A stretch of DNA of 63,059 bases, the filler included, from Dugesia japonica (lineage: Eukaryota), in the NCBI GenBank assembly GCA_001938525.1. It is 5 parts of 5 records of this genome, joined end to end, with 100 filler letters (N's around TTAATTAATTAA, not from the genome) between each part and the next. Parts side by side here need not be neighbours in the genome. Positions count along the whole stretch, not along the records: positions 33,931 to 50,179 come from MQRL01630877.1; 4 more parts are not named here. One strand, written 5' to 3'. The position numbers and the translations under genes are program-made. The notes under the pieces are model-generated. The model did no database searches. It saw nothing but the letters and a program-made list of their open reading frames with translations, and was not told where the DNA came from. The number at the start of each line of letters is the position of its first letter. The stretch's first letter is position 1. Shown piece after piece: positions 3,051-40,948 of this stretch.

Positions 3051-3939
3051 ACATAATGTCATTCTTAAATTGGAAATAATTATATATTATAAATAAATAA
3101 ATCATTATAAATCTTTTCTACTATCACGATGTCTTTTCCTTCTGATAGCTACGATTACTCCATAATTATATTGACAATATTCATTATCACATCTTTAACT
3201 CTCTTTAAATATCTCTTAAAATNCAAGTGGCTCTCTTGGATGCCACAGTAATCATGGAACAACCCTGTAACACATTGTTCACATCTCCGTTCATTTGTCA
3301 ATCAAGATTTTGATAGTACATCTCTTGAGTTTACTGGTGTTGACTTTCCGATACTCATCCTGCACTTCTTTGACTAAGTATAGGTTTGCATTGCTCTAGG
3401 TTTTCTTTCAAACCAAATTTATTTTATCTTTAAACTTTCTTTTTTTCGACAATATCTCTGTTCAGGCTTTCTTTCAAGCCAAATCTGTTTTCCTGCTTAG
3501 CTTTGTTTTATGCTTATCTTTCTATTATATCAGACTCTTTCAAGTCCAATGTATTTCCAACATCTTATTATTTTAGTTCGAAACTAATTCCGCTAGAACT
3601 TTCTTTAAGATAAGCTTATTCCCGCCGAGTTTTGTTTTAGTCTGTTTCTTTTTTTCTCTTAGATTTTCTTTTAAGCCAAATTAACTCTTTAATTCCTTTT
3701 ATCCTTGATTATTTCCTTTTATTTTGCATAATATTTATCATGTTCACCAAAATTATCATTTTTCTCTATATCATTGTTTCTCCTATTTATTTATTTCCAC
3801 AATTATCATCATATTTATATGTCTATGGTAATTCTGTCATCTCCATCATTCGTTTAATTTGCTACATTCTAGAAATTAACAAAGATCATTGATTGATTGT
3901 GATTATTCAGAATAATGAGGATGTATTTATGGCGGTTAA

Positions 3940-20472: not shown

Positions 20473-21929
20473 TTTGAGAGAAAGGTGTTTTTTAAACAAT
20501 TTTAATTTAAATTTAATTGAATAGTTTAAATGTAATTAATAAATCAAATTTATTAATATAAATATAAAAATTTTTTAAATAAAAAGTGTACTATGTAGCA
20601 TAGAAGAATGTGAAAAAAAAATAATATCTTTTCTAGATTCAGATATTTTTTTAAAAAATAAAAATATATTAGTGTAGTAGGTTTGGGAATTATGGTTTTT
20701 TTTTATCTAGTTTGGTCTAAACATTCATTCAGGAATTTTTTCCCTTGTACAAATTTTAAATTCTAGTGATAGAGTTGTCAATTGTCAATATAGAGGGGAA
20801 ATATTTGTTAGTATTTAGTGTTTTCAAAATTTTCCTGTGCGAATTTTAATTGCAAAAATTAATATTCAATTTATTTTAGTAATAGAATAAAAGCGCACCA
20901 AACCACATACCTCCGTTTGTAAAAGGTTAGTAGAAAGTGGTTTGAAAAATTCGCTATTTAAATAGGTGGCGAACATAATTTATGTGCAATTGCATTACTT
21001 TTACTCGTACGTTTTTTGTGCCTGGTTAAAAATATTTAGATTTTTTCAAAATATTCAATCTTTTATCATCTTTTTTTATAAATTTACTTGAAAATTATTT
21101 AAATTTATATAAGGAATTTTTCCTTGTTTAAAAATATTCAATTTAATTTATTGTAAAAAGTAATTTTTCAAATATTGATTATTGTTTGGCTAATTCTTTT
21201 ATAATTAAATGAAAATCATATTTACTACCATTATGAAAAAATATAGGAATATATAGGTTTTCAATTTAAATTACAACTGATATGAGCAGCACCTATATAT
21301 GTACTATTAAAGTGATCATGATCTAATACTTTATCAATAAATACACTATTATTATTAATATGTAATGATTTTGGATCATACTTAAAGAATGACCTCAAAA
21401 GTGCACTATTCCAATTATTTAAATTTTAAATTTGCATTGAAAATCTTCAACTAATAAACATTGATTTTAATAAAAACCTTATTGCATTAAATTTTAAAAA
21501 TATTAAAAAATTTACGAATTTTTAAAATTACCTAATAATGTCAATACAAACGATAGATATGATGAAGTATATTAAAGTGATTTCGAAAGGCAGTACCTAA
21601 ACGTCAGGGCTTCACCAGAGGAGGATTTGGTTGAAGCCATCTATTGTTAAAAAAAGAAAGTAATTACCCTCAAAGAGTCGAAAAGTAGTATGATTTCGGG
21701 AAAGTTACAAAATTATTATACAGGTTCCTAAAGAGGGCAATCAATGAACTTAGAATCTAAAATTAAAGAAGCTATCTAAACCCTTATCGAGAATAAATCT
21801 TATTTTGATTAACAATCCGAACGAACTTTCATGATTACTTGATATTTTATAACCCAAAACATAAATGATATAAGAAAAAAATATGCATTCAAATACCATT
21901 CATAAAACCACCTTACATTTCAAAAAAGT

Positions 21930-22859: not shown

Positions 22860-23830
22860 GTGTGGCAATGCTCTACTATTTACATACTCGTGTATTAGCA
22901 ATAACGTGTTGATTTTACTGTTTCAAACTGATTGTTGTTCCGTAGCAAACAGATGATTGCTCATATAGTCAAAAAATACACCCAAAATCACTATGTCTAC
23001 TTCTACCGTTATCCATACTGTAGTGTTCCTAAATCTATAGATTTACATTCCTTCAAATTTGACCCAAATCAGTGTAAGTTAACTTCGTGCTCAATGCTCA
23101 TCAGATATAAATTATTAATGTCAATGTACAGTAACTCTGTATTTTCATCACTAACTACATAATGATTTTTGACAAATGGGAGACCTCCTCTGATTCTACC
23201 ATCAAATACATGTCGTTGTCTGTTAGTAACTCTGATAATTCTCTTAAGATCATTAATGCTGAATCCCTGCTCATGCCATAAATATCAAATAAACTTAATG
23301 GTTCTAGATTGTTGTCTTCCAATACAATATGTTTTTGGAGCTTGTGATTTCAACATAGATACAGCTTTCTCATATTATTCTTCCCTAACTTTAACCCATT
23401 TTTAGACAAACATATTGCTTCAATCAAATCTTCCAAACTTGTTTCATAATTGTATGAGGAAATCCACCTTAACTTTATTATCTTCAGATCTCTAGATTTA
23501 TTTGTTCTCACTTGTGCTGATTTTAAGGATTTTACTGCAAAATCCAATAAAGGATAATTAAACTGATACAAGTGAATGAATCTGATTGTGGTTTTCTTGC
23601 TGTGGACTATAAAACATAGGAAGTATTCACTAGTTGTTAGAATGCATATTCCAACTTGAAAATATGCTAATGAAAATTTGCGGACATGATAAAGATCATA
23701 TTCTCTAAGATTGTGAAAAACATCAGACAACGGTACATTTATTCTTCTGCTAAGATTGTATTGGTTACACGCTACTCCTTCGAATTCTCCGGTAAAGGGA
23801 TCATAGTCAGATACCAGGTTAACTATAGGT
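22860..23830 (-). pseudogene. Second Polinton protein-primed PolB remnant (EndoVII-type)
   Basis: DYDPFTGEFEGVACNQYNL (decayed EndoVII), VFHNLREYD (exonuclease FHNxxGYD), IRFIH, FDGRIRGG and ELLYIDINNLY (motif A). Confidence 0.75.
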
Positions 23831-24383
23831 TGGTTACATAAATACTATGATGTAACAGTAGAAAATGATATTTCTTCATTGAGTGTAATTAAATTATTCT
23901 TTTCTTCATTATAATTATAATATGACAAAATATGAGATTGTCTAGTCAATACTACTTATACTGAATATCAGATGTCTATAATCATAAATCTTCATTTTTT
24001 AAAATTTTTAAAAAATTTTTCTCTTATAAATTTTTTATTCTAATAAATATTTTTATGCTAATTTTATATTAAATTATTTTTAGAATTTTAAAACTGATAA
24101 ACATTAACACAAAAACATTTTTCAAATATTTAAAAACAATTTAAATTTCAAATGTATGAAATAATATAAATCCTAGCGTTTTAAATTTACAAGCTTTATT
24201 TTCAACAAATAATATAAGTATGAATAGTAACGAACAATTAATTAAAAAATTAAAATTAAATGACGATTGTGAGGTAAATTAAATAGACAGGTTGATTCGG
24301 GGAATTTTTTGTGGCAAATTAATAAAAGAATAATAATTTNNNNNNNNNNNNNNNNNNNNNNNNNNNNNNNNNNNNNNNNNNNN

Positions 24384-24675: not shown

Positions 24676-25114
24676 TACGACGAGTACGAATAACACGATT
24701 AAAAATCAACAAACATTATACATAAAAAGTTGTATAGAAAAAACAAGTACTTTATATGGGAGTCCCAAGGAACAGAAAATAGTTTAATAATTTACTCGAT
24801 TCAGCTTATTTTAGGATGGTTTTAGATGAATTTGGTTGATAATTTACTCTTCATTGATCTTTTCACTCACTTCTTTGTTTTTTCACACATTAATAGTCCT
24901 CAGTTATCAAAGATTTGTTCATTAGTGCGCAGACACTAAAACTCTGCGAGCAGTGCACTGATCATTAATTATCAATGGTTTTCTCACTCTGCATTTTTTT
25001 TCTATCATTTTATGATTTTCTTCCACTATTTGCAGGTTTTTCTAATTTACTGGTTTTCTTTCACTATTTGCAGGTTTTTCTAATTTACTGGTTTTCTTTC
25101 ACTATATGATGGTA

Positions 25115-28100
25115 TTCACTCTTCATTAGTGGTAAATGTACTGTTTAATTAATATTTAATTATTTAACCTATTCTATATTTTTACCTGCTAATTTTTTAA
25201 ATTAAATTAGATATCGTGTGTATTTTAATTTGTGTTCTATTTCTATCGCAAAACTTTAATTAAAGTTTAATTTACATTAGGAATTTTTTATTAAGATTGA
25301 ATCCATAAAATAATTTCTAAACATTTATTGGAAATAATCCATATAATTGATTGAATAAATTAAGTATGGTGAATTGATTAATTTTCAACGTGTAATTTGA
25401 TTAAAACTATGCTTTTGAAGGTAAATTGAATTATGTTTTGAATAAATCTTTAAAAGTAATTTTAAAAATAAATTAGATTTCATGTATACATTTTTATGAT
25501 TAAATTTAAAATTTTTATGGTTAAATTAAAATTATAATAGAAAAATATTTATTAAGTATTGATGAAATTTTGAAATATTTTAAAATCGAATTAGATTTCT
25601 CGTGTATTTTTTTAAATTAATGTTTAATTTATAATAGAAAATTTTAATTAAGATTGATTCATTGAAATAATTTCTAAACATTTATTGAAAATAACCCGTA
25701 TAATTGACGGATTTAATAAATTTCAAATAATTATCAGTAAAAGTACATACAACTTGAATTTATGTAAAACACGTTAATTTTAGACAAATATTTCAAATAA
25801 ATAGTTAAAATCATGCTTTTTTAAATAAGAGTAGAGGATTAATAAAAATAAATATTTAACTCAAATTTAAGCATCAAAGTAACTATTAGATAGAGAATTT
25901 TATGCTAAGTAAGAATAACACGGTTAAAAATCGAAAATCTTTAATCTTAATGAAAATAGTTAATTTCAAACTTTAATTTATAATAATTGAAATCTTTATT
26001 AAGCATTAGATAATTTGAAATAATTTGAAATATTTATTGAAAATAACTAAAATAATTGATTGAATAAATAATCTTCAAATAATTATGAAGAAAATATCTA
26101 AAACATTAATTTTAAGTGTAAAATACAGTCACATTAGACTTTTTAAAATAATAAGTGAAATTTAAGCTTTTACAATTATAATGAAGAAAAGACTTTAACA
26201 ATTTTTTTTTCAATTAAGATATTACAATAAATAAGAATAATTTTGAAATTAAATTCAATGAATCAAATTAGTTACTCAAATAGTTATTGATTTGTTTATA
26301 ATTTTACTTTGAATAAAATTTCTTTGAAAATTTAACTAATTAATTAAAAACGTTTTAAATAAATAAATCAAGTGATTTGAAAGGATAATATGGAAGGTTT
26401 ATGAATAATTGGTTAAATTTTTAATGATTGAATAAATTTATATGTTCCAAGTAGGTGATTAATTGGTTAATAAACACATTACAAATTTTATTTTTAATGG
26501 ATTTTACTATATTAATCGGTTTATTCGAGTTATTAGTTGTAATGTATATATTCAGTATGTATTAGAGTTGACTATATTGAATAAACTATGAAAACATTAA
26601 ACCATTAACTGAATAATCAGTAATTAAATGTTGATAACGAGCATTGTGTATGTTATTACTTGTTGATAGCGAGTAATCTGTATTTTAAGACTTAATGATA
26701 GTCAGTATTGTGTATTTTAAGACTTGATGATAGTGATAGTAGTGTTTGTTAAGAGCTGTTGGTAATGAGTATTGTGTGTGTTTAGATACTTTGTTTAGAT
26801 TATTTTCCAATTCTTTTACATAGGGCTTTTGAAAATAAAAACGTTTATGTCATTTTTCAACAATGATAAAAACGTTCCTGCCATTTTCAACAATTTTTTA
26901 AAAGATTTGTGTCATTTTTACTATTTATAGTCTCTCTCATCATCTCTAATTCTTAACCTCTCGCACTTATCCTTTTTTACTTGATCCTTCTTAATCTTGT
27001 TCTTACTTATCATTTCTCTAACTTAAAGCAAAGAAACATCCTAAAGAATAAATTGAAACCTAGTTTGAATAAGAAATAATTGAATTTTTGCTTGATTGTC
27101 TATGTATTGGTCCAAAAGATAAATATCAATAAATTATAATGTAGTAGATGGCATACTTACAACAATTGGTTTATTGAAGAATAGAAAATATAGATAAATT
27201 TAGTTAAATAGGAAAAAATGATGGTAATTAGTGAAGAATAAGCAAAATATAGCTAAATATGGTAAAATATGGGTATATAATGCGAAATGACTTAAAATAT
27301 GGCGAAATGAGGAAAAAGGCGAAAATGTACCAAACGTAGACAAATTAAGCATATTAAATGACTATTTATAGAATAAATGCAGTATAATTAGTGATTATTT
27401 TTACTCTATTAAATATTTTCTACCTTCAAACTCATATTTTCCAACGGTAAAACTTGTAATTTTTATAAAAAGTCTATAATTTTTCAATGAAAAGTCTTTA
27501 GTTTTCCAATGATGAACCATTATTTTCTAATATTGAAAATCATATTTTCAATCAAAACAAATAATTCATTCAATCATTCAAGTACTTTTCATCTTAATAT
27601 AATATAATCCTTTGACAATATAGGTTCATTTAATCTAATGTGCATTATTCACCTATTAATCATACTTAGTATAATATTCGATATCATATAGTTTAAGTCA
27701 TAGTACACAACTCTCCTATCATCAAGTCTTAACATACATAATACTCACTATCATCAGCTCTTAACATACACAATATAAGCTATCATCATTTACATATTGA
27801 TTATTTAGTTAATGGTTTAATCTGTTCATTACTTGTTCCATATAGTCAGCCCTAAACTTCAGCCTGAATATATACTTAACAACAAATAACTGGTTAATTA
27901 TTTGCCTAAATATAGAAAATTCCTTTGAAAATAGACCTTATAATGTGTTTATTAACCAATTAATCATCAATTTAGAACATATAAAATTTATTCATTGTGA
28001 TCTAATCATTCTACCTAATTATTTATGAACCTCTTTAAAATAAAGAAAAAGCTTCAATCAAAATAAAATGTATTTGTAAAAAAGTTCAAATTTTCGACAA

Positions 28101-30925
28101 TAGTCTTCNNNNNNNNNNNNNNNNNNNNNNNNNNNNNNNNNNNNNNNNNNNNNNNNNNNNNNNNNNNNNNNNNNNNNNNNNNNNNNNNNNNNNNNNNNNN
28201 NNNNNNNNNNNNNNNNNNNNNNNNNNNNNNNNNNNNNNNNNNNNNNNNNNNNNNNNNNNNNNNNNNNNNNNNNNNNNNNNNNNNNNNNNNNNTTAATGAA
28301 ATCTCAAATGCGATCAATGGTTAAGTCCAACAATTATTCTCAGAATAATTGTAATTATAAAATTTATGAACCTATTATTAAACTTTAAAATTAATTAATT
28401 AATTAAGACTTATCAGAAAGTTTATTCTATCAAAGTAAAGTTTAAAACCAACATATGCAACATTATAAATTAAACTTGAAAATAAAAATTATTCTTATTT
28501 ATTTTAGTATTTACCGAATGTAAAACCATAACTGTAAAGGTTTTTCCTCTTTATAATTTATTTATAATTATAAAAGCTTTAATTTAATCAACTAGTACCA
28601 ATAATAAGCATTTATTTATTTTCACTTCATATTTAAATTGTCTAAAGTTATTGTATTTTACACTTAAAGTTAAAGTTTTAGATATTTTTCTGATAATTAA
28701 TTGAAAATTATTAAATTCCTCATACTTAATTTAATCAATCAATATTATTTGCAATATTTTCAAAGAATAATTACAAATTATTTCAAACTTTTCAATACTA
28801 AATGAATTTGCTATTATAAATTTAATTTAACCATAAAAATTTAAAATTTAATCTTAAAACTATATACATGAAATCTAATTTATTTTCAAAATTACCTTTA
28901 AAATTTATTCAAAACATTATTCAATTTACCTACAAAAGCAAAGTTTTAATTAAAGGATCAATAAGCAAAGTGCGTCAACATAAACAAAGGCTGTCTTTAA
29001 AGCCAGAAAATCCTCCCCAAGACTTTTAGTCTTGGTTTGGACAGATAATAGCTGTATATAAAATAGCAAAAAAAAGAATACACTGATAGGAGAGGGCGCA
29101 AAGATCATAACCCGGATTGAGAATCTTTAAACTCATTTATCCACAATAGGCTCGCTATCATTCAAGTCTTTGATTGCGGGAAAATCAAAGTCTTCACAGT
29201 TAGCTAGCCCAATGTGAAATCACCAGTTCTTGGTGATGAGATTTAGACCACCATACTTCAGGACAGAAACGTTTTTAACACACCACGATCATAGACATCC
29301 AACTGAGATCGTTTCAAGGTAAGCAGTCTAATTTGAAAGGTTTCTTTTGATGTCTTCCTTGAGACCCAGTCAGTGAGAGGGTCATTTACAGCTTTCGACT
29401 GGAAATAATCTTCAAGATCAGCCTAAGAAGGATAACAATCAGCAGTAACCTCGTTAGTTATCAACTGAAAAACTACCTTTTGTGAAAATTTGAATTGATC
29501 TCTTACGCTCAGATCCATCTCATCGCACATGTTGTTTTCTCCCTCTCTCCCAATTTTAAAATTAATATTTTTAGGTTTAATATTACGAACAGAGTGAACA
29601 AAGCTGTAGACAGATTCCACAGAAGTGTTCATGTCAGTACTGTCCATTGATTTTATTAAAATATTAAATTTAGTTTCTTTTTCTGTAATTTTTCTTTCTG
29701 AAACATTCAAAATTAATAAATTCATCATGCTTGATTCATTCAATAAATTATTTTCAATAAAGGTTTAGAAATTATTTTAACGAATCAATCTTAATAAAAA
29801 ATTCATATTATAAATTAAACTTTAATTAGATTATTTACGATAAAAATGAAACAATTTAACTAAACGGTGGTTAATTAATGTAACGCTAATTTAATGAACT
29901 TTACGCTAATAAGTTTTAATGAATTTGACGCTAATTTTTAATTAATTTTTAAGTAACATATTTATAAAGTTATCACTGAAAGACTTTAAAGTTCTTATAA
30001 GTCATCGATTAAATATTGGTTATAAAGTAAAATTAACAAGAAAACAACTAATAAATATATATTTATTAAAATTTTATTTACAAATTACGAGTGATTTGTA
30101 TTATGTTTTTCTTTTTTAGGTCTCTCAATTCCCCGATTTGGCACCAGAGGAAAATTGATGTAATTGAGCAAGGTTTCTTTTTTCAATACATCATAGACAT
30201 GAAAACATTGTTTTTCTTATAAAAAACGTAACAAGTGCAAAACGCATCTCTAAACGTTGAAGGGGTTTCCGATGAATAAACACAAATATTTTTACTTAAA
30301 AACTTAGCAGAATCATCAAATAACTCTATGGATATTTTAAATAATTTAATAAAATTCAATTTTTCTAATTGCTCAGTAGTATTAAACAACTGATAAAAAG
30401 CAGTGTTGCCGTTTTGGTCAATAGTCTTCCGAATCCTGTAATCTTAAAGCTGTTGTGCACATTGGTAAGTAAATACATTACATTTCTTATTTGTTTTGAA
30501 ATCTCTTTGTCTCCATAAGCCATTTTTAAGCCACTTTTCTTCATAATTACAGGCTATCTAATTGATTTTCATTCTCGATTTTTTTCAAACATTGTCTAAA
30601 TTTGTTATTAAAAATTCAAATATTTTCTAAATTCTTAATAAAAATCTTACTTTTTTCTATAATTTTAAAATTATTATCATAAATGGCTATTTATAATATT
30701 AAAACGAAAACATTTTATATTTAGCGTAAAATTTATTAAAAATTATTAACGTAAAGTTCATTAAATTAGCTTAAGGTTCATTGAAATAGAGTAAATTTAA
30801 TTATTATTTCTGAACTAAATATACACTAAATCTTACTTAATTTATAAATTAAAAGTAAAAATATAGAATAGGTTAAATAATTAAATATTAATTAAACAGT
30901 ACATTTACCACTCGTGAAGAGTAAA
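25115..30925. mobile_element. Large imperfect palindrome / foldback-like element
   Basis: Nested inverted matches: 25115-25190 vs 30855-30925, ~25400-25560 vs ~28790-28950, ~26100-26150 vs ~28635-28690, ~26420-26500 vs ~27930-28000, ~26600-26780 vs ~27710-27830. Confidence 0.7.
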
Positions 30926-31019
30926 GACCAATGAAGAACAAAGACCATTAAGTGAGAGTAAAGACCAGTAAACAGTGGGAAACCATTTATAACTAAAGAA
31001 CAGCTCACAGTACACAATG

Positions 31020-31980
31020 TGCAGATTCTCTATCTAATAGTACACTGATCATTAAATTTGGATGAAAATTATAAAAAATAATACTTAAACTAAATAGTAC
31101 TTAAACAATAATTAAATTATTATTTTATTAATACTTTTTATTTTTAATTAATTATTAAGAATTAAAATCTTTTAACTTTTTTCAAAGTAATTTGGTTTGG
31201 CAATTTTCTACCGTATATATTCTTGATCAGCGAAAGATTCTCTATCTAATAACACACGAATCATTAAATCTGTATGAAAATTATAAAAAATAATTTTTAT
31301 TTGTGTCCGTTAAGCATAAACGGAATTTTTGTCCGGGTTTTTTCAATTTCTCTCAGTCAAAATTAAGGTTGTCGCTTTGAAGTGATGTTTTTCTTGATCA
31401 GTGAAAAATCCTTTATCGAATAATGTATGTTTTTTACGATTAAAAACAAACTTTAAAAATTTTCACAAATTCTTGGTTTTATCCCATTTTCCTAAGCTCC
31501 AGACAAGATTTGGGGATTTTTAACTAAGTCAGTCATGATCAGCAGAAAAGTTTCTATCGAATAGGTACTTTGATGTTCAAATTTGAGTTACGTTTTTATT
31601 TTTTGGAAAAGTTACAAAATCCCGGAGAACAGCGAAATATCTTCGTTAGGAAGCATTTTCTCGAGACAATATTTTAACTTTGTATAGTCTTTTTTTCCTC
31701 TTGAGTTAAATAATAACAAATTTGAGTCCATACGAGTTATATGCACAAAGAGAATTGAACGTCAAAATTCAAAATTTGAGATTTTTCGATACAAAACTTC
31801 ATTTATTTCATGTAGTATTAACTTTGTCGATTTTAGATTATAACAAATTGTTATCAACCATCATCAATATCGGCTAAATTTTCTCTATCTAATAGACATA
31901 GTTATTTTATAAAAAAATGAAAATAAAATTTTCGAAAAATTTTAAGTTTTGAAAAATTATCTCAATCGAATGAATTCTGC
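31020..31980 (+). repeat. Spaced array of the motif GATCAGxGAAAxxTTCTCTATC(T/G)AATA
   Basis: Copies near 31025, 31225, 31395, 31537, 31880 and a degenerate one near 31960, all in the same orientation. Confidence 0.6.
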
Positions 31981-33886: not shown

Positions 33887-35616
33887 NNNNNNNNNNNNNN
33901 NNNNNNNNNNNNNNNNNNNNNNNNNNNNNNTATATATATATATATATATATATATTTCGATGAATCAGAAGTGATTATATTTTGATATCTAATAAATATT
34001 TGTAGTAAATTGTTGTTGTATCATAACCTAACAATTATGTATATTATTATTATTATTTGTAGGGAGATAAGATTATTATTATACAAGTTTATTATTGTGT
34101 ATATTCATTACTGTAATGTTATTATTTACAAATGTCATATTCGTTATTTTAAATAAAATGTTCAATTTTTCAAATGCAAGCTTGAACCAACATTATAAAA
34201 GTTTAGATTTTCCAAAATTTAAATTTGAAATCACCAGCACCGACATAGTTTGTGCGTAATAATAAAAAGCGGGATCATTAACAGCTCGCATAATGTAAAC
34301 CTACGATATCAATTATAACAATAGGTTGTCATCTTATAGAAAAGTGGTATCGCTTATATCAATAAACCGCTGCCACCTATCGATTAATGTTTAAATTTAA
34401 AATAGCTCAGTAAGAAGAATTATACCAACGTGCGAAGCGCGCAAATAGAAAAACATGACAACTAAAATAAAAACGTACATCATTATTATTGTTTTCATCG
34501 CGGCAATTATCGCGTGATAACGAGTGAATAATTATGATGCAGCAAAGAAATGATTGCTACAAAATTAGAAAATCCACGAAAAGTGATCTTTAAACAAACG
34601 ATGAAACTGCAATAATAATCATAATCTTCAATCTTCAAAATCAATTTTAAAATGGTAATTGGTTAATTAGTTATTGTTTAGGATTACCTAAACTCTATAT
34701 TGTAAAGCTCATTACTGAGAAACATAGATTTACGTTGATCAGTTATAAGAACGCGAAATAAATTTAACAATATTTGCGCCATCATCTAAAGAAGAAGCAC
34801 ATTACCAATTATTAATAAATATTGCATATTTAAAGTTGAACTATTTCTCATACCATCTGAGAGCATCCACAGACGGATCACAAATAAGACAAAAAACGTA
34901 AAAGTTTTCTATTGTAATAAGCAGCGTGGATAGGAAAATAGATGAAATAAAATTGTGATGACGAAAATATGAATCAAATCGAAAATGTTTGGTCCTAACT
35001 GGAGAAGCTAGGGATGATTGAGCAATGAAATTTTATGCATATGTCGTAAAATTGTTCTTGGTTTTATGTACCGTAGTAATAGTTATAATTTTATATTTTT
35101 CGTTTTATTGTATTCACTCATTAATGATAAATTTTCATTAATGTTTGAAGATTAAGTTAAAAATTTTTAATATATTAATGACTTTTGATTATCATCGACG
35201 TTTTAGTAAATTTAGACAAAGATTTTATAAATTTAATAAACTGATTAACGATAATATAGGGTATTTCAAAAAACAGGAATGATGTACTACAAACAACTAC
35301 AACAACTCGCGATTGTGAGCAACGGAACGGTTAATAAGCAGATCTGAGAAAATTGGAATTGGATAAGAGTTGGTTTGTTGGAAAGAAGGTGATAGTGTTT
35401 GGGAGGTATTGATTTTTTGTAGAGTTAGGGGTTAAGGGTTAGTAGGTAGTAAGAAAGGGCTAACATAATTTATTTTTCTAAAATTACTCACAAAAACCTT
35501 TTATACTCCAAACGCGTGACAACCCATTTTGTTGATCTAGTGCACCTACAATTTTAGAACTTCCTGACCTATTATCATCCTTAGTTACCTTTACAAACAT
35601 ATATAAAACTTTCAAG

Positions 35617-35953
35617 AGTAGTGGTGAAAACACGCTTTTAACTCAGGGAGTAGCTCCGAATTTGTGCAAAGGGCATAAACGATAATAGTACAACAAAGTT
35701 CATTACCACTGGAACAGAAATTAAGCACTGATTACATAGGAAAAAAAGGGTCATCGTTACCAGGGGAACAGAGTTTGATACCACTACAACAACCTTAATA
35801 AACAATGGGTTTGTTATTTGAGTTGTGTTTTTCAGTTGTATTTTAGCTTGTGTTTTGTTGTGCAGCTGCTAACGCACATTTCGGATAAAAATGCCCTGAG
35901 TTAAAAGCGTGTTTTCCCCACTACTCATAATTAGTTATTTTTTCTTGAATTTT
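35617..35953 (+). repeat. Polinton left TIR
   Basis: Reverse complement of 49144-49424, with about 10 mismatches in the first ~124 bp by manual count and a ~56-bp extra segment at ~35764-35820. Confidence 0.93.
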
Positions 35954-36059
35954 GATTATTTTATTGGTAAAGAAAATGGATAAAAATAATTAATCTTGAT
36001 TTTATATTAATATTAATTAATATTATTAATATTAATTTTCAATATTTTATTTTTGAAAA

Positions 36060-37299
36060 ATGATGTTTTGACAATTTCACCTTGATCTGGTTCAATTTAT
36101 AATTTAATGTCTACTGGAGATATAGTTTTTCAATCTTTACAATCATCAAATTCATTAGATATTTGTAATTCAATGTTATACTTTAGAATAGAGATTGATG
36201 TTCAAAATGGAGATAAAATAACTTTGGAAAATAATTGGTTTTCAAGTTTATTTAAATCAATGAGATTAACTTTAGGATCTTCAGATGTGGAAACAATCAA
36301 TGACTCAGGAATTTCATCAACAATATTAAATTTTGTAACAACTAGTTCAACTTATAAAAAAATATATGGTAAATTATCAGGATGGATTCCTGATGCAAAT
36401 AATAGTGATTTAGATGCTACTAGTTTGGGGGCAAATACAGGTCGTTTTAAAATAAATAAACTTTATTACTTAAAGAAGAAATTTGATGGTTATTTTCCAA
36501 TAAAAGATTGATTTGGTTTTATGCAATGTTACAACAGATTATTATATAATACAAATATTGAATTTATATGTAATTGACAAATAGAAGATAAATTATTATT
36601 CGTTGGAGATAAAGATAAAACAGCAACTTTAAAACTAACAACTCTAGAATTACATATACCAGAATTTAGATTAGTTCTAAAAATGGAGGTAAATGTATTA
36701 GAAAGAATTAACACAAATAAATCTATTCAAGTTTCATTTTTAAATAGAATTACCTCCAAAACAACTTTGGATTAAGGAAATTATTATTCGGTGAAACTAA
36801 GTAATTTAACTTATAAATCAAGATATATTTTTATTGTAATAACAGATTTAGAAATTTCATATCAAAAGAATAATAATATATTTATTAAACAAATTAATAA
36901 AACTGTTGAAAATGAAACAAAAGAAAAAATTACAATAAAACATTCTCTCAAAAGTATTCAAGTACAATTTAATAATACACATTATCCTATAAATGAATCT
37001 AAATTTAAATGACTTTACCCTATTTAAATTATGCAAATTGTTGTAAAGACTTTTTCATTGAACCTCAGTTATCTTTACAAGAGTTTGGTAATTCGTATCC
37101 AATATTTTGTTTTGACATTAGTTCCCAAGATGATAAATTAAATATTAACACTGTGGATATAACTTTACATATAACTAAAGATCCTGATTTTAAAGGATCT
37201 TTATGTTGGTGCATTTTAGAAGAAAAACTTATTGAAATAAAATTATTTAATTTTAAAATCCTCATGATTGAAAATAAACGAAATGAAAGCTATGTTTAA
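36060..37299 (+). pseudogene. Polinton major capsid protein (double jelly-roll, hexon-like)
   Basis: ITLENNWFSSLFKSMRLTLGSSDVE, D*FGFMQCYNRLLYNTNIEF, LELHIPE, IQVQFNNTHYP and YPIFCFDISSQDDKLNINTVDITLHI follow the Polinton/adintovirus MCP motif order. Broken by stops and a frameshift. Confidence 0.8.
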
Positions 37300-37325
37300 T
37301 ATTCTCTAATTCTTAAATATATAAA

Positions 37326-38639
37326 ATGGATAAAAATAATAAAAGTATTTGTGAAAATTGTAACAAAATATTACTTAGAAAAAATAAAGCTAGACATTTT
37401 AAAATTTGTGAAAAGACTCCTTCCAGTCGTGAGCGAGAGCGAACAAGAAGAGATCTTCAATTTTCTAAATCAACTTTTGCAATTTTAAAACCATTTATTT
37501 GGAAAAAGTATCCAAGTGAAAGACATTTGTTTAAACCTAATTATACAGGTCCAAGAACAAGATTAGATTTAAGATTAAATTCTGAAGGTAATCCTAAACC
37601 AAGAGAAGAACCAATTAATAGAGTTGATGAAGCTGCTTTAAAACATGATTTGTCTTATAAATCAGAAGATTTAAGAGATTGACATTTAGCTGATGTAAAT
37701 TTAATTCATGATTTGAATAATATCCAAAATTCAACTACTTCTGAAAAAATACAAAGAAGTTTAGTAAAATTAGCAATGAAAGGTAATATTATTTTAGGTG
37801 CTGGAACGAACGAAGTGAGTTCCATGCCTATTGATAATAAAGAAATATTATCAAATCAATTACATCACGAATATAGAAAACCAAAACATTTCCTAAAAGT
37901 TATTATTAATGAAATTGATGAAACTTGGGGTTGTGATATTATTGATATGGTTAAAAAATCTATTGATAAATATAGATATATTTTAGTTTGTATTGATTTA
38001 TATTACAGATTTGGTTCTTGTGTTCCAACGATTAATAAAAATCACGAATCTTTATGAGAAGCTTATGAAAATATATTTGAAACTAGTAACAGAGTAACAA
38101 GTAAAATTAGGTTTGATAAAGAGTCAGCAATTAGATCCAAATATTTTGATAAATTTCTTAAAGAAAATGATATTATATTATATCACACAAAAAATGAAGG
38201 TAAATCGGCTTTTGCTGAAAGATTTATTAGAACTTTAAAAAATAAAATGTTGAAATACTTTACATTAGTTAGAAACCAAAAATGGAATAAAACATTGTTA
38301 GATAAAATTGTAAATGAATATAATAATACAATTTATTCTATTATAAAAACCACTCCAAATGAAGCATCAGAAAATCCTGAAACTATAAAAGGTTTAATCG
38401 AAGATCGTAATCATGAAATTGATAACTTTAGTTTTAAACAAAAATTTAAAATTGGAGATACAGTTAGAATCTTTAAATATAAATATAAATTTGAAAAAGG
38501 TTTTACAGCTAAATGGACAAATGAAATATTTGAAACAAAACCATTTATTTATGGAATTACTGATTTAGAAAATGAAAAGATTTTAGGCAGATTTTTTAGC
38601 AATGAATTACAGAAAACTGTTTTAAAAATTTTAATTTAA
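37326..38639 (+). pseudogene. C2HC Zn finger, parvovirus-type phospholipase A2 and retroviral-like DDE integrase in one reading frame
   Basis: ORFs 37326, 37713 and 38247 share one frame, separated only by TGA at 37680 and 38055. Motifs: CENCNKILLRKNKARHFKIC; NYTGPRT...PINRVDEAALKHDLSY...*HLAD; LHHEYRK...WGCDIIDM, RFDKES, AERFIRTLK, YNNT.YS, FKIGDTVRI...FEKGFTAKWTNEIF. Confidence 0.88.
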
Positions 38640-38649
38640 TAAATTAAAA

Positions 38650-39009
38650 ATGAGTGAAAATTCTTTCAATTTTATTTTAAAAGGCGCTCTAAATGAGGAA
38701 TCAAAAAATATTTTAAAAGAAGAAAATTCACAAGAATTTAAAGAAGAATTTAAAAATGAATCAGAAGAAAATAAATATTTAAAAAAATCACTCGCAGCTG
38801 TAAATATTAAAAATTCACCAGAATTATTTTGGAAGTGGTTAACTATAGATACTATTGAAGATAAAACAGATGAAGAAACTTCTCATTTGATTAATTACTT
38901 TAAAATTTTTATTTTTTATAATATGGATCCGTATAGTATGAGTATATTAAATCTAGTTAGAAATAAATTAGATAAAGAAGATATGACTGGTAGTGTATAT
39001 AAAATATAA
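38650..39009 (+). CDS. Polinton hypothetical protein
   Basis: 119-aa ORF starting 11 nt after the integrase stop with an AAAATG start. No motif recognised. Confidence 0.5.
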   Translation: MSENSFNFILKGALNEESKNILKEENSQEFKEEFKNESEENKYLKKSLAAVNIKNSPELFWKWLTIDTIEDKTDEETSHLINYFKIFIFYNMDPYSMSILNLVRNKLDKEDMTGSVYKI

Positions 39010-39080
39010 ATAGAAAGATTCTTTGATAAAAAAATAACTTCTGATAATGAAAATAAGTAATTATTTTTTATTAAATAAAT

Positions 39081-39845
39081 ATGTCTCAACTAATTTGGAA
39101 TAAAAATATCTTTAATAATAAAATCTTTCCATCTAATTTCAGATTATTAATAATTGGATCTTCTGGATAAAGTAAAAATCTTTTGTTAATGAAAATTTTA
39201 TTAACTCCAGAGTTTTTAGATTTTGACACTTTAATAATTTGTTCCACAACTATAAATCAATTTGAATAACAGTTTATGGTTTATCATCGTTTTGAAAATG
39301 GTTTAACAAAACAAGATATTATTTTTATTTTTGAAAACCAAAATATAGTTCCTGATTCTTTAAATACTCCTTTGCCAGTTATTGAATGGTTTATAAAAAA
39401 GTATTTAATAAACAAACCAAGAATGATAAATGTGATTTTAAGTAATAAACCAAATGAAATTATTCCTTGTGATAAATTATCTAAACAGAAAAAGAATTTA
39501 ATAATTTTTGATGATGTTGTAAATGTCAAAGATCAAGAAATTCAAAAAAGTTATTTTTCTAGAGGAAGACATGTAAATTTAATGTTATTTATATTTCTCA
39601 AGCATATTTTCATTTAGATAAAAACTCTATTAGAAATAATTATAATTGTTTTACATATTTTTTAAATTAAATAAAACAGATAAAGATAATGTTTATTATG
39701 ATTTGTTTAGTAATATATTTTCAAGTAAAATGTAATATGATTAGAATGTAAATTTACATTAGAAAACTAAATATAATTATTACTATTTAGATAGAGAAGC
39801 CAAAGTTTTAATGGAAGATTTTTTTGAAGAGGAGAAAAAGGTGTA
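39081..39845 (+). pseudogene. A32/FtsK-like DNA packaging ATPase
   Basis: FRLLIIGSSG*SK (damaged Walker A), LIIFDD (Walker B), YFSRGRHVN, and YLSQAYFHLDKNSIRNN after a frameshift. Confidence 0.88.
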
Positions 39846-40009
39846 ATTTATGGGGCCTTTTGGGTTGCTCCTCTTTTAAAATCCTCCTACATCTTAAATT
39901 GATAGGTAAAAAAAGGAGATGAGAGGTAAGAGGTAAAAGGTGAGAGGAGAAGAGTATTTAATTTTCAAAAGAGGAATTGAATTATTTTTTCAAATTACAA
40001 GTAAATAAA

Positions 40010-40510
40010 ATGTCTTTAGTATCAGAACAAGAATTAATTGATTTGGTAAATTCAAGTAAATGTAAATCTGTAAAAATTAATAAAAAAATTGGATTGGAGA
40101 ACAAATTAAAGAAGAAATAAAAAAGAAAATGGGTAAAGAACATGAAGGCGGTTTTGCTTTTCTAACTGCAATACCAGGTATAATTGCTGGTTTAGCATCT
40201 ACAGCTAGTATTGTTTCAAGTGTTGCTAGTACAGTAAGTAATTTTAGAGATGCAAATAAAAAACAAAAAGAAACTGAATTAGTTGAATAACAGAAAAAAA
40301 ATTTAGAAAATAAAATTAAAAAAGAAGAATTACAAAAAGAAGGTTCAGAACTTTACTTAAAATCTTATCAAAGTTCTGCAATTCATAAATATTTAAAAAA
40401 CAGTTTACCTAACTCATAGTTGAAGATGATTACTAAATATTTTTAAAAAGGAGTACAAATAAAAACTAGTGGGGATGGTTTATATTTAAAACCATATAAA
40501 AATGGATAGT
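40010..40510 (+). pseudogene. Membrane-lytic / protein VI-like virion protein ('Cupiennin'-type)
   Basis: HEGGFAFLTAIPGIIAGLASTASIVSSVASTV amphipathic segment after GGF, a coiled coil, then GSELYLKSY and GDGLYLKPYK repeats. Confidence 0.65.
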
Positions 40511-40516
40511 GTACAA

Positions 40517-40948
40517 ATGATAGAAAGAATAAAACTTTTGAAACAATTAATTAAAGCTCAAGATGATTATGATAATTTATTTACTGGTAATATAATTGAA
40601 TCAAAAACTTTATGAGATGTTTTAACTACACAACAACAACCCATTATTAAAGCTATTGAAAACGTAGTTACAAAACCTAAAAATCCATTTAAAAATAGAA
40701 TTCCATTCTTTCCTAAAATTAATTTAAATGTTGATAATTTGTCTAAAACAATTATACCTATATTTGAAATAGAAAATATTGATAATAAAATCTTTCAAAA
40801 GATAATTTACCCACATAAAGAAAACTTTTATTGAAGAAGATGGAAAGATGAAGAGGATGTGTTTATATCTTTTATATTCACTTAGTTGTAAACCTTTTGA
40901 TGAAATTATTAATGAATTATTTACATCCTTAATTCAAAATGAGTTATA
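40517..40948 (+). pseudogene. Polinton hypothetical protein remnant
   Basis: MIERIKLLKQLIKAQDD...QQPIIKAIENVV; broken by a stop and a frameshift. Confidence 0.4.

Follow-up and report, generated by a model that had tools for sequence, protein, structure and literature searches.

The element and its genes

The window is the whole analysed stretch of DNA, 63,059 nucleotides, filler included, from Dugesia japonica. Within it, terminal inverted repeats (TIRs) flanked by TTCAAG at both ends define an integrated Polinton of 13.8 kb, which carries the following features.

35611..35616 (no strand): left copy of the 6-bp target site duplication TTCAAG; identical hexamer at both ends
35617..35963 (+): left TIR, beginning AGTAGT and sharing about 92% identity with the right arm
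36056..37299 (+): major capsid protein (MCP) gene, broken; weak matches to PF21738, tblastn against the MCP of locus L016 with E 9e-70
37326..38639 (+): fused frame of zinc finger, phospholipase A2 (PLA2) and rve integrase; 437 codons, two internal TGA
37350..37409 (+): N-terminal zinc-finger-like motif of the form CxxC..H..C; U1/matrin-like in relatives, and present in a subset of the family only
37515..37787 (+): parvovirus VP1u-type PLA2 domain, containing the first stop (37680-37682)
37791..37805 (+): junction motif ILGAG (aa 156-160), a predicted adenain-type GX/G site (the slash marks the cut)
37854..38636 (+): rve integrase, interrupted by the second stop (38055-38057) and with a short deletion close to its C-terminal end
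39078..39825 (+): A32/FtsK-like packaging ATPase gene, broken; tblastn against the ATPase of L010 with E 4e-42
40084..40500 (+): stand-alone pX-like core protein gene with a GG/F motif; E 5e-5 against L014
43224..46186 (-): protein-primed PolB (pPolB) gene, broken; PF03175, tblastn against the pPolB of L024 with E 3e-128
49134..49424 (-): right TIR, paired with the left TIR
49425..49430 (no strand): right copy of the 6-bp target site duplication TTCAAG; identical hexamer at both ends

A target site duplication of 6 bp is a mark of the Polinton/Maverick family. The element combines this duplication and the TIRs with a pPolB, a DDE rve integrase, a double jelly-roll (DJR) MCP and a packaging ATPase, and thus belongs to the Polintons/Mavericks (Polintoviricetes), as a first, sequence-only reading of this DNA had assumed. 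The pX module, which is joined to PLA2 in PLA2X elements, is a separate small gene here.

Profile searches of the element found neither an adenain-like protease (profile from 24 adenains, best E 2.1) nor a minor capsid protein (profiles from the minor capsid proteins of about 27 loci, best E 0.04). Among related loci, L001, L008, L022 and L025 have the protease, and L001 and L016 have the minor capsid protein; both genes have likely been lost from the D. japonica copy. A likeness seen by eye between 40850-40946 and a protease or minor capsid remnant was unsupported by the profile searches. Directly after the integrase gene there is an unclassified ORF (38650-39050), whose coverage is far thinner among host copies and which one contig skips; in L008, L022 and L025 it is the protease that sits downstream of the integrase.

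The element is heavily decayed, and this copy is dead. In two runs of the matching species, about 10,000 contigs per run fall on the region 36700-40000 with a likeness of at least 80%, so the element family has many copies. One contig among those listed crosses the PLA2-integrase junction (37712-37941), but it is gapped and its frame is not readable. Two raw RNA runs placed 24 and 153 reads on the stretch, mostly less than 90% alike and only partly aligned, and these reads are nearly absent over the junction.

The flanks of the element are AT-rich and full of transposons. Inside the element, its right part contains a 14-nt tandem repeat (48155-48406), and one short repeat occurs both near the right TIR (48959-49078) and outside the element (28244-28363), the two being 98% alike; this repeat is probably a later insertion. 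Also outside the element, 21167-21335 and 23560-23901 resemble the endonuclease VII region of Polinton pPolB and, judged by this resemblance, are older Polinton fragments, and nested inverted repeats form an imperfect palindrome of several kilobases (24999-31603), perhaps a foldback element.

The fused reading frame

The sequence-only reading described three fragments in one frame separated by two single TGA codons, and regarded the first TGA as lying inside a domain rather than at a gene end. The analysis agrees on both points: 37326-38639 is a single frame of 437 codons with exactly two internal stops, at codon 119 (37680-37682) and codon 244 (38055-38057), and intact relatives read through both of these alignment columns. 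As was also claimed, the fragment between the stops (37683-38057) is open over its whole length and links the end of PLA2, ILGAG and the first part of the integrase.

The translation of this frame was scanned against Pfam with X in place of the stops. PLA2 (PF08398) is matched at amino acids 66-145 with 28.7 bits (cut-off 23.9), and the catalytic residues H107-D108-x-x-Y111 and D123 are present; the Ca-binding loop deviates from that of relatives, and the match to the VP1u of the AAV capsid is weak (E 0.035). With PF08398, HDxxY and the distal Asp, and with a deviating Ca loop, this part is, by its sequence, a parvovirus-type PLA2. Such PLA2s form group XIII. The rve domain is matched at amino acids 199-288 with E 1.9e-6 and 28.5 bits, which is below the cut-off of 32.6. 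Its residues D204, D264 and E298 are intact, and this integrase has no chromodomain.

The zinc finger that the earlier reading placed at the front of the fusion is less general than the other parts. Its residues (C9-x2-C12-x11-H24-x3-C28) are in place, and AlphaFold2 models this start as a beta-beta-alpha unit, but the Pfam scan of the D. japonica frame gave no match there and a finger is found in only 7 of 51 dereplicated fusions. In two of the seven finger-bearing relatives scanned (P0006 and P0008), zf-U1 is matched just under the cut-off.

The AlphaFold2 model of the whole frame, calculated from an alignment of 32 rows, has a mean pLDDT of 68 and a pTM of 0.45; behind the beta-beta-alpha start, it has a helical PLA2 part, linkers of low confidence and a confident integrase core. 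In a Foldseek search with the full model, the matches listed were integrase-type folds only, including foamy-virus (PFV) integrase (E 4e-12) and MELD-virus integrase (E 2e-13), and the PLA2 fold was not recovered.

The fusion in related elements

With the profiles built here, both domains were found in 43 of the 101 homologs, and among the best 150 representatives at 50% identity there are 31 PLA2-integrase proteins. These proportions cannot be taken as frequencies for Polintons in general, as 28 of the fusions served as seeds for the profiles and proteins with both domains come first in the search ranking. P0144 and two proteins with internal deletions are among the 31; the other representatives are 116 proteins with integrase only and 3 with protease plus integrase. 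Precomputed annotations assign PF08398 and PF00665 together to 20 of the 101 homologs (240-765 aa). Among longer forms (929-2650 aa), there were 12 matches (11 retroelement polyproteins and one coral protein), none annotated with PF08398. In P0144, the order is inverted within one protein: integrase, chromodomain and then a C-terminal PLA2.

In 80 metagenome loci (of 163), the two domains lie in one stop-free segment in 29 cases and are adjacent with a break in 36; the remainder have integrase only (8, of which 5 are at a contig start) or PLA2 only (7). Of 27 IMG/VR loci, 17 show integrase only, 9 carry PLA2 in a gene of its own, and a single one is fused. The fusion described in the sequence-only reading is thus confirmed, but the layout is not peculiar to the D. 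japonica element: as far as sequence data reach, it is widespread and common to dozens of intact relatives. Its statement that PLA2 and integrase are normally separate genes also holds, both for loci L004-L007 and L088-L091 and in the accessible text on described Polintons (PMC8502044, PMC5803895).

The intact fusions number in the dozens, are independent and share 33-62% identity. Dereplication at 70% identity reduced 68 fusions with a complete junction to 51. In these fusions, the three DDE residues of the integrase are kept in 51/51, 50/50 and 49/50, and HDxxY of PLA2 is kept in 45 of 48 relatives. Pairs of intact loci gave dN/dS ratios of 0.08-0.34 for PLA2 (6 informative of 8 pairs) and 0.07-0.34 for the integrase (5 of 8), the pairs left out being saturated or near-identical. 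Both domains are therefore under purifying selection, and these results support the view that the fusion is a genuine architecture maintained by selection rather than a by-product of decay. Distances in the two domains show a modest correlation (rho 0.29-0.32).

In a FastTree tree of 174 integrases, that of D. japonica lies within a set of 24 rows that is fused throughout (support 100; one long-branch row is included). Over the whole tree, the fused state changes 17 times, at least 8 of the changes being forced by well-supported branches, so that either several gains or many losses have to be assumed; these counts carry no rooted test, and some unfused rows may be truncated gene calls. The integrase end without a chromodomain, remarked on in the sequence-only reading, is a trait of the clade: a C-terminal extension is present in 0 of 16 scorable members of the D. 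japonica clade versus 5 of 12 in other fused lineages.

In terms of gene content, all 13 loci of at least 10 kb in which PLA2 adjoins the integrase have just one PLA2 region, and pX has a gene to itself in L001, L010 and L014 as in the D. japonica element. Of the 66 loci in which PLA2 adjoins the integrase, many of them short, 31 have adenain; among the 13 fused loci of at least 10 kb, 10 have it and the other 3 gave no adenain match. In L001, an insert of about 300 nt (3279-3579) interrupts the region coding for the PLA2 Ca loop. It folds well (z -3.06) and contains what we take to be the P, Q, R and S motifs of a group I intron, while Rfam gave no match in L001; it is possible that this insert is a self-splicing intron in a Polinton gene.

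The junction motif

A glycine motif (GxG or GG) occurs at most 14 residues after PLA2 in 44 of the 51 dereplicated fusions, in a scoring window that was chosen after the alignment was viewed; in integrase windows the background rate is 0.5%, and of the linker windows further on, 30 of 524 contain the motif. Within the 40 residues before the integrase start, the motif is present in 39 of 51 fused integrases versus 10 of 59 that stand alone. Of the 51 fusions, 8 fit the strict adenovirus consensus (M/I/L at P4), or 12 when V/F is allowed, and ILGAG of the D. japonica frame fits its (M/I/L)XGX/G form. A G-rich site also lies upstream of PLA2 in 19 of 27 fusions (strict GG in 12), although the D. 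japonica frame has none there. The proposal that LGAG is an adenain-type site gains from this conservation and from agreement with the GX/G specificity of mavirus, and cleavage itself remains a prediction.

In stand-alone PLA2X, the PLA2 domain ends in the same K-x-GxG, followed by a basic stretch and pX, so the motif may be a structural domain end. As sequence, the shared K-x-GxG can be read either way, as an inherited cleavage site or as such an end.

In L003 (2740-4248), P0116, P0138 and P0168, an adenain-like protease is in frame with an rve integrase plus chromodomain. The protease part matches the adenain profile, of which L003 is one of the seeds, and Pfam Peptidase_C5 is matched in two of these proteins, below the cut-off only. 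By their sequences, they appear to be a second virion-protein-integrase polyprotein. All four have GxG at the junction and the upstream domain is not PLA2, so that, at the level of sequence, they serve as an independent test of the junction motif.

For most stand-alone integrases that neighbour the fused clades, the start lies about 8-35 residues upstream of the conserved ELH segment, which is approximately the start expected of an enzyme released at GxG. Most fused integrases begin directly at ELH and do not have the helical N-terminal region of many stand-alone ones. The linkers between PLA2 and integrase are of low pLDDT and range from about 7 to more than 60 residues.

Frame shifts at the junction

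Among 49 distinct junctions, D. japonica included, 33 are in frame. The remaining 16 are out of frame (11 at +1 and 5 at -1), and some copies are split. In L051, a start codon for the integrase frame overlaps with the stop of PLA2, and this locus is a split and possibly translationally coupled version. No Met for the integrase is found in 14 of the 15 out-of-frame junctions parsed (the parse omits 4 loci, and 2 rows are mis-anchored).

The density of shifts at the junction (20 in 2413 codons) is about 4.7 times that elsewhere (36 in 20507 codons; 59 loci). The shifts cluster in one lineage with A runs (L052, L054 and L059-L087), where +1 is the commonest state; several of its junctions have slippery heptamers. 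The sequences are compatible with either recoding or homopolymer decay, as the out-of-frame copies are related to each other and often decayed, and A runs mutate easily. We rejected programmed -1 frameshifting as a rule for the whole family, as shifts go both ways and many copies have other lesions.

A possible role for the fused protein

The accessible text of two reports has PLA2 acting in entry (PMC8502044, PMC4642659). The account that we prefer, with somewhat more confidence than doubt, is that the D. japonica frame is a decayed copy of a conserved PLA2-integrase gene whose product would be a virion precursor polyprotein that is packaged and then cut at glycine motifs by an adenain-type protease. 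PLA2 usually forms the first part of the core protein PLA2X; in the fusion, this module would direct the precursor to the capsid. Once packaged, the precursor would be cut by the protease, freeing PLA2 for endosome escape or membrane penetration and an integrase whose start matches that of stand-alone Polinton integrases; the released integrase would then insert the incoming genome. For the protease and the minor capsid protein, the D. japonica copy would have depended on another element or on a part that it has since lost. For this model, we draw on the observed fusion, its conservation, the selection on it, the motif and the protease in most large related loci, from which, together with analogy, we infer cleavage and packaging. 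Against the model stand the small number of strict adenovirus sites, the same motif at the end of PLA2 in stand-alone PLA2X, the two uncut GXG sites of mavirus, the lack of adenain and minor capsid matches in the D. japonica element and of adenain matches in 3 of the 13 large loci, the out-of-frame junctions and the separate start in L051, the modest correlation of distances and the near absence of RNA reads over the junction.

Three other explanations have to be weighed against this polyprotein model. A chance in-frame junction, produced by deletion, decay or mis-assembly in one copy, might be suspected in an element so decayed and with no detectable protease or minor capsid genes, but dozens of intact independent fusions already refute it, and the selection on both domains and the contig from another host copy that crosses the junction speak against it; we give it practically no credence. 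More serious is the idea that the protein stays uncleaved and bifunctional, the attached PLA2 being a capsid- or membrane-targeting module that replaces the helical N-terminal domain of other Polinton integrases, and GxG being simply the end of the PLA2 domain. The same motif at the end of stand-alone PLA2X, the small number of strict adenovirus sites (8/51), the direct start of most fused integrases at ELH and the lack of a detected protease in the D. japonica element all speak for it. On the other hand, GxG is present at all four protease-integrase junctions, a second G-rich site precedes PLA2 in 19/27 fusions (strict GG in 12/27), and linkers of such variable length, with low pLDDT and a pTM of 0.45, give no sign of a fixed interface in the model. 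We consider an uncleaved protein unlikely.

The fusion may alternatively reflect gene economy with no packaging role, the parts acting separately and the integrase being made by internal initiation, re-initiation or frameshifting. Such a loose association would suit the 17 changes of state on the integrase tree (at least 8 forced), the separate start in L051, the 16/49 out-of-frame junctions and the excess of shifts there. It is harder to reconcile with a 24-row clade that is fused throughout with a support of 100, or with the missing integrase Met at 14/15 parsed out-of-frame junctions, and economy alone does not predict that the recurrent upstream partners should be virion proteins (PLA2 and adenain). 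We regard this explanation as quite unlikely.

The integrase of retroviruses is the C-terminal part of a virion precursor, Gag-Pol, and is released by the viral protease. The polyprotein model can be extended to a similar way of loading the integrase that has arisen or been reshuffled several times, in which the integrase is placed behind a virion protein (mostly PLA2, in others the protease) and freed at GxG, and in which one sister lineage sets the dose by recoding at its A-rich, mostly out-of-frame junction. We put this extension forward tentatively, our doubts outweighing our confidence.

If the polyprotein model is true, a conserved precursor that links the integrase to an entry enzyme and contains a predicted site of maturation would be evidence, at the level of sequence, that the infectious cycle includes integration upon entry. 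In the accessible parts of the literature compared, how a Polinton integrase would reach a new genome is not shown. Many integrase annotations hide an N-terminal PLA2 or protease domain, and the question of mechanism could be reduced to a simple protease assay on natural proteins.

Comparison with known systems

Full-text literature searches returned no description of a PLA2-integrase fusion; Repbase, subscription journals and bioRxiv supplements lie outside their scope and could annotate one. The word "fusion" does not occur in the accessible text of PMC8502044, and the accessible text of PMC3671162, 10.64898/2026.06.19.733378, 10.64898/2026.10.13.758929, 10.1101/2024.03.25.586562, PMC11161782, PMC11296320, PMC4642659, 10.1101/2023.08.22.554363 and PMC8097293 mentions neither a PLA2-integrase nor a protease-integrase fusion. 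In the portions available, Buck et al. note possible hexon-adenain fusions made by frameshift. Within these sources, then, we found no prior description of the PLA2-integrase layout, separate PLA2 and integrase genes being already known. Polinton virions are described as unobserved in the accessible parts of PMC8097293 and 10.64898/2026.06.19.733378.

According to the accessible text of Starrett et al. (2021, PMC8502044), adintovirus PLA2X is a PLA2 with a C-terminal pX, and the integrase, with a chromodomain, is a separate gene; likewise, INT and the PLA2 "CAP" of the Sf Mavericks are given as separate ORFs in that of PMC5803895. The D. japonica protein resembles PLA2X and "CAP" in its VP1u-like PLA2 with HDxxY and a K-x-GxG end, and the element resembles adintoviruses in holding a PLA2 together with pPolB, MCP, ATPase, TIRs and an rve integrase. 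It differs from PLA2X in that the integrase takes the place of pX after PLA2 and pX has its own gene (40084-40500), and from adintoviruses (Starrett 2021; Buck 2024) in that the integrases of the D. japonica clade have no chromodomain, other fused lineages having one in 5 of 12.

Mavirus offers a precedent for virion maturation. In the accessible text of Born et al. (2018, PMC6048507), its virions contain integrase and two lipase fragments with a GK/G site between them, and its protease cuts GG/X and GX/G, two GXG sites being uncut. A related adenain-like protease and an rve integrase are common to both systems; mavirus virions were seen to hold the integrase and the processed lipase. Unlike the fusion, the mavirus integrase (MV02) and lipase (MV13, an alpha/beta hydrolase) are separate genes, and the lipase is of another family.

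Retroviral Gag-Pol serves as a working analogy only. Polintons are dsDNA viruses that have a double jelly-roll capsid and a cysteine protease and lack reverse transcriptase, and the upstream partner is PLA2 or adenain, not Gag; the likeness lies in an integrase that stands behind a virion protein and whose fold matches that of the PFV integrase.
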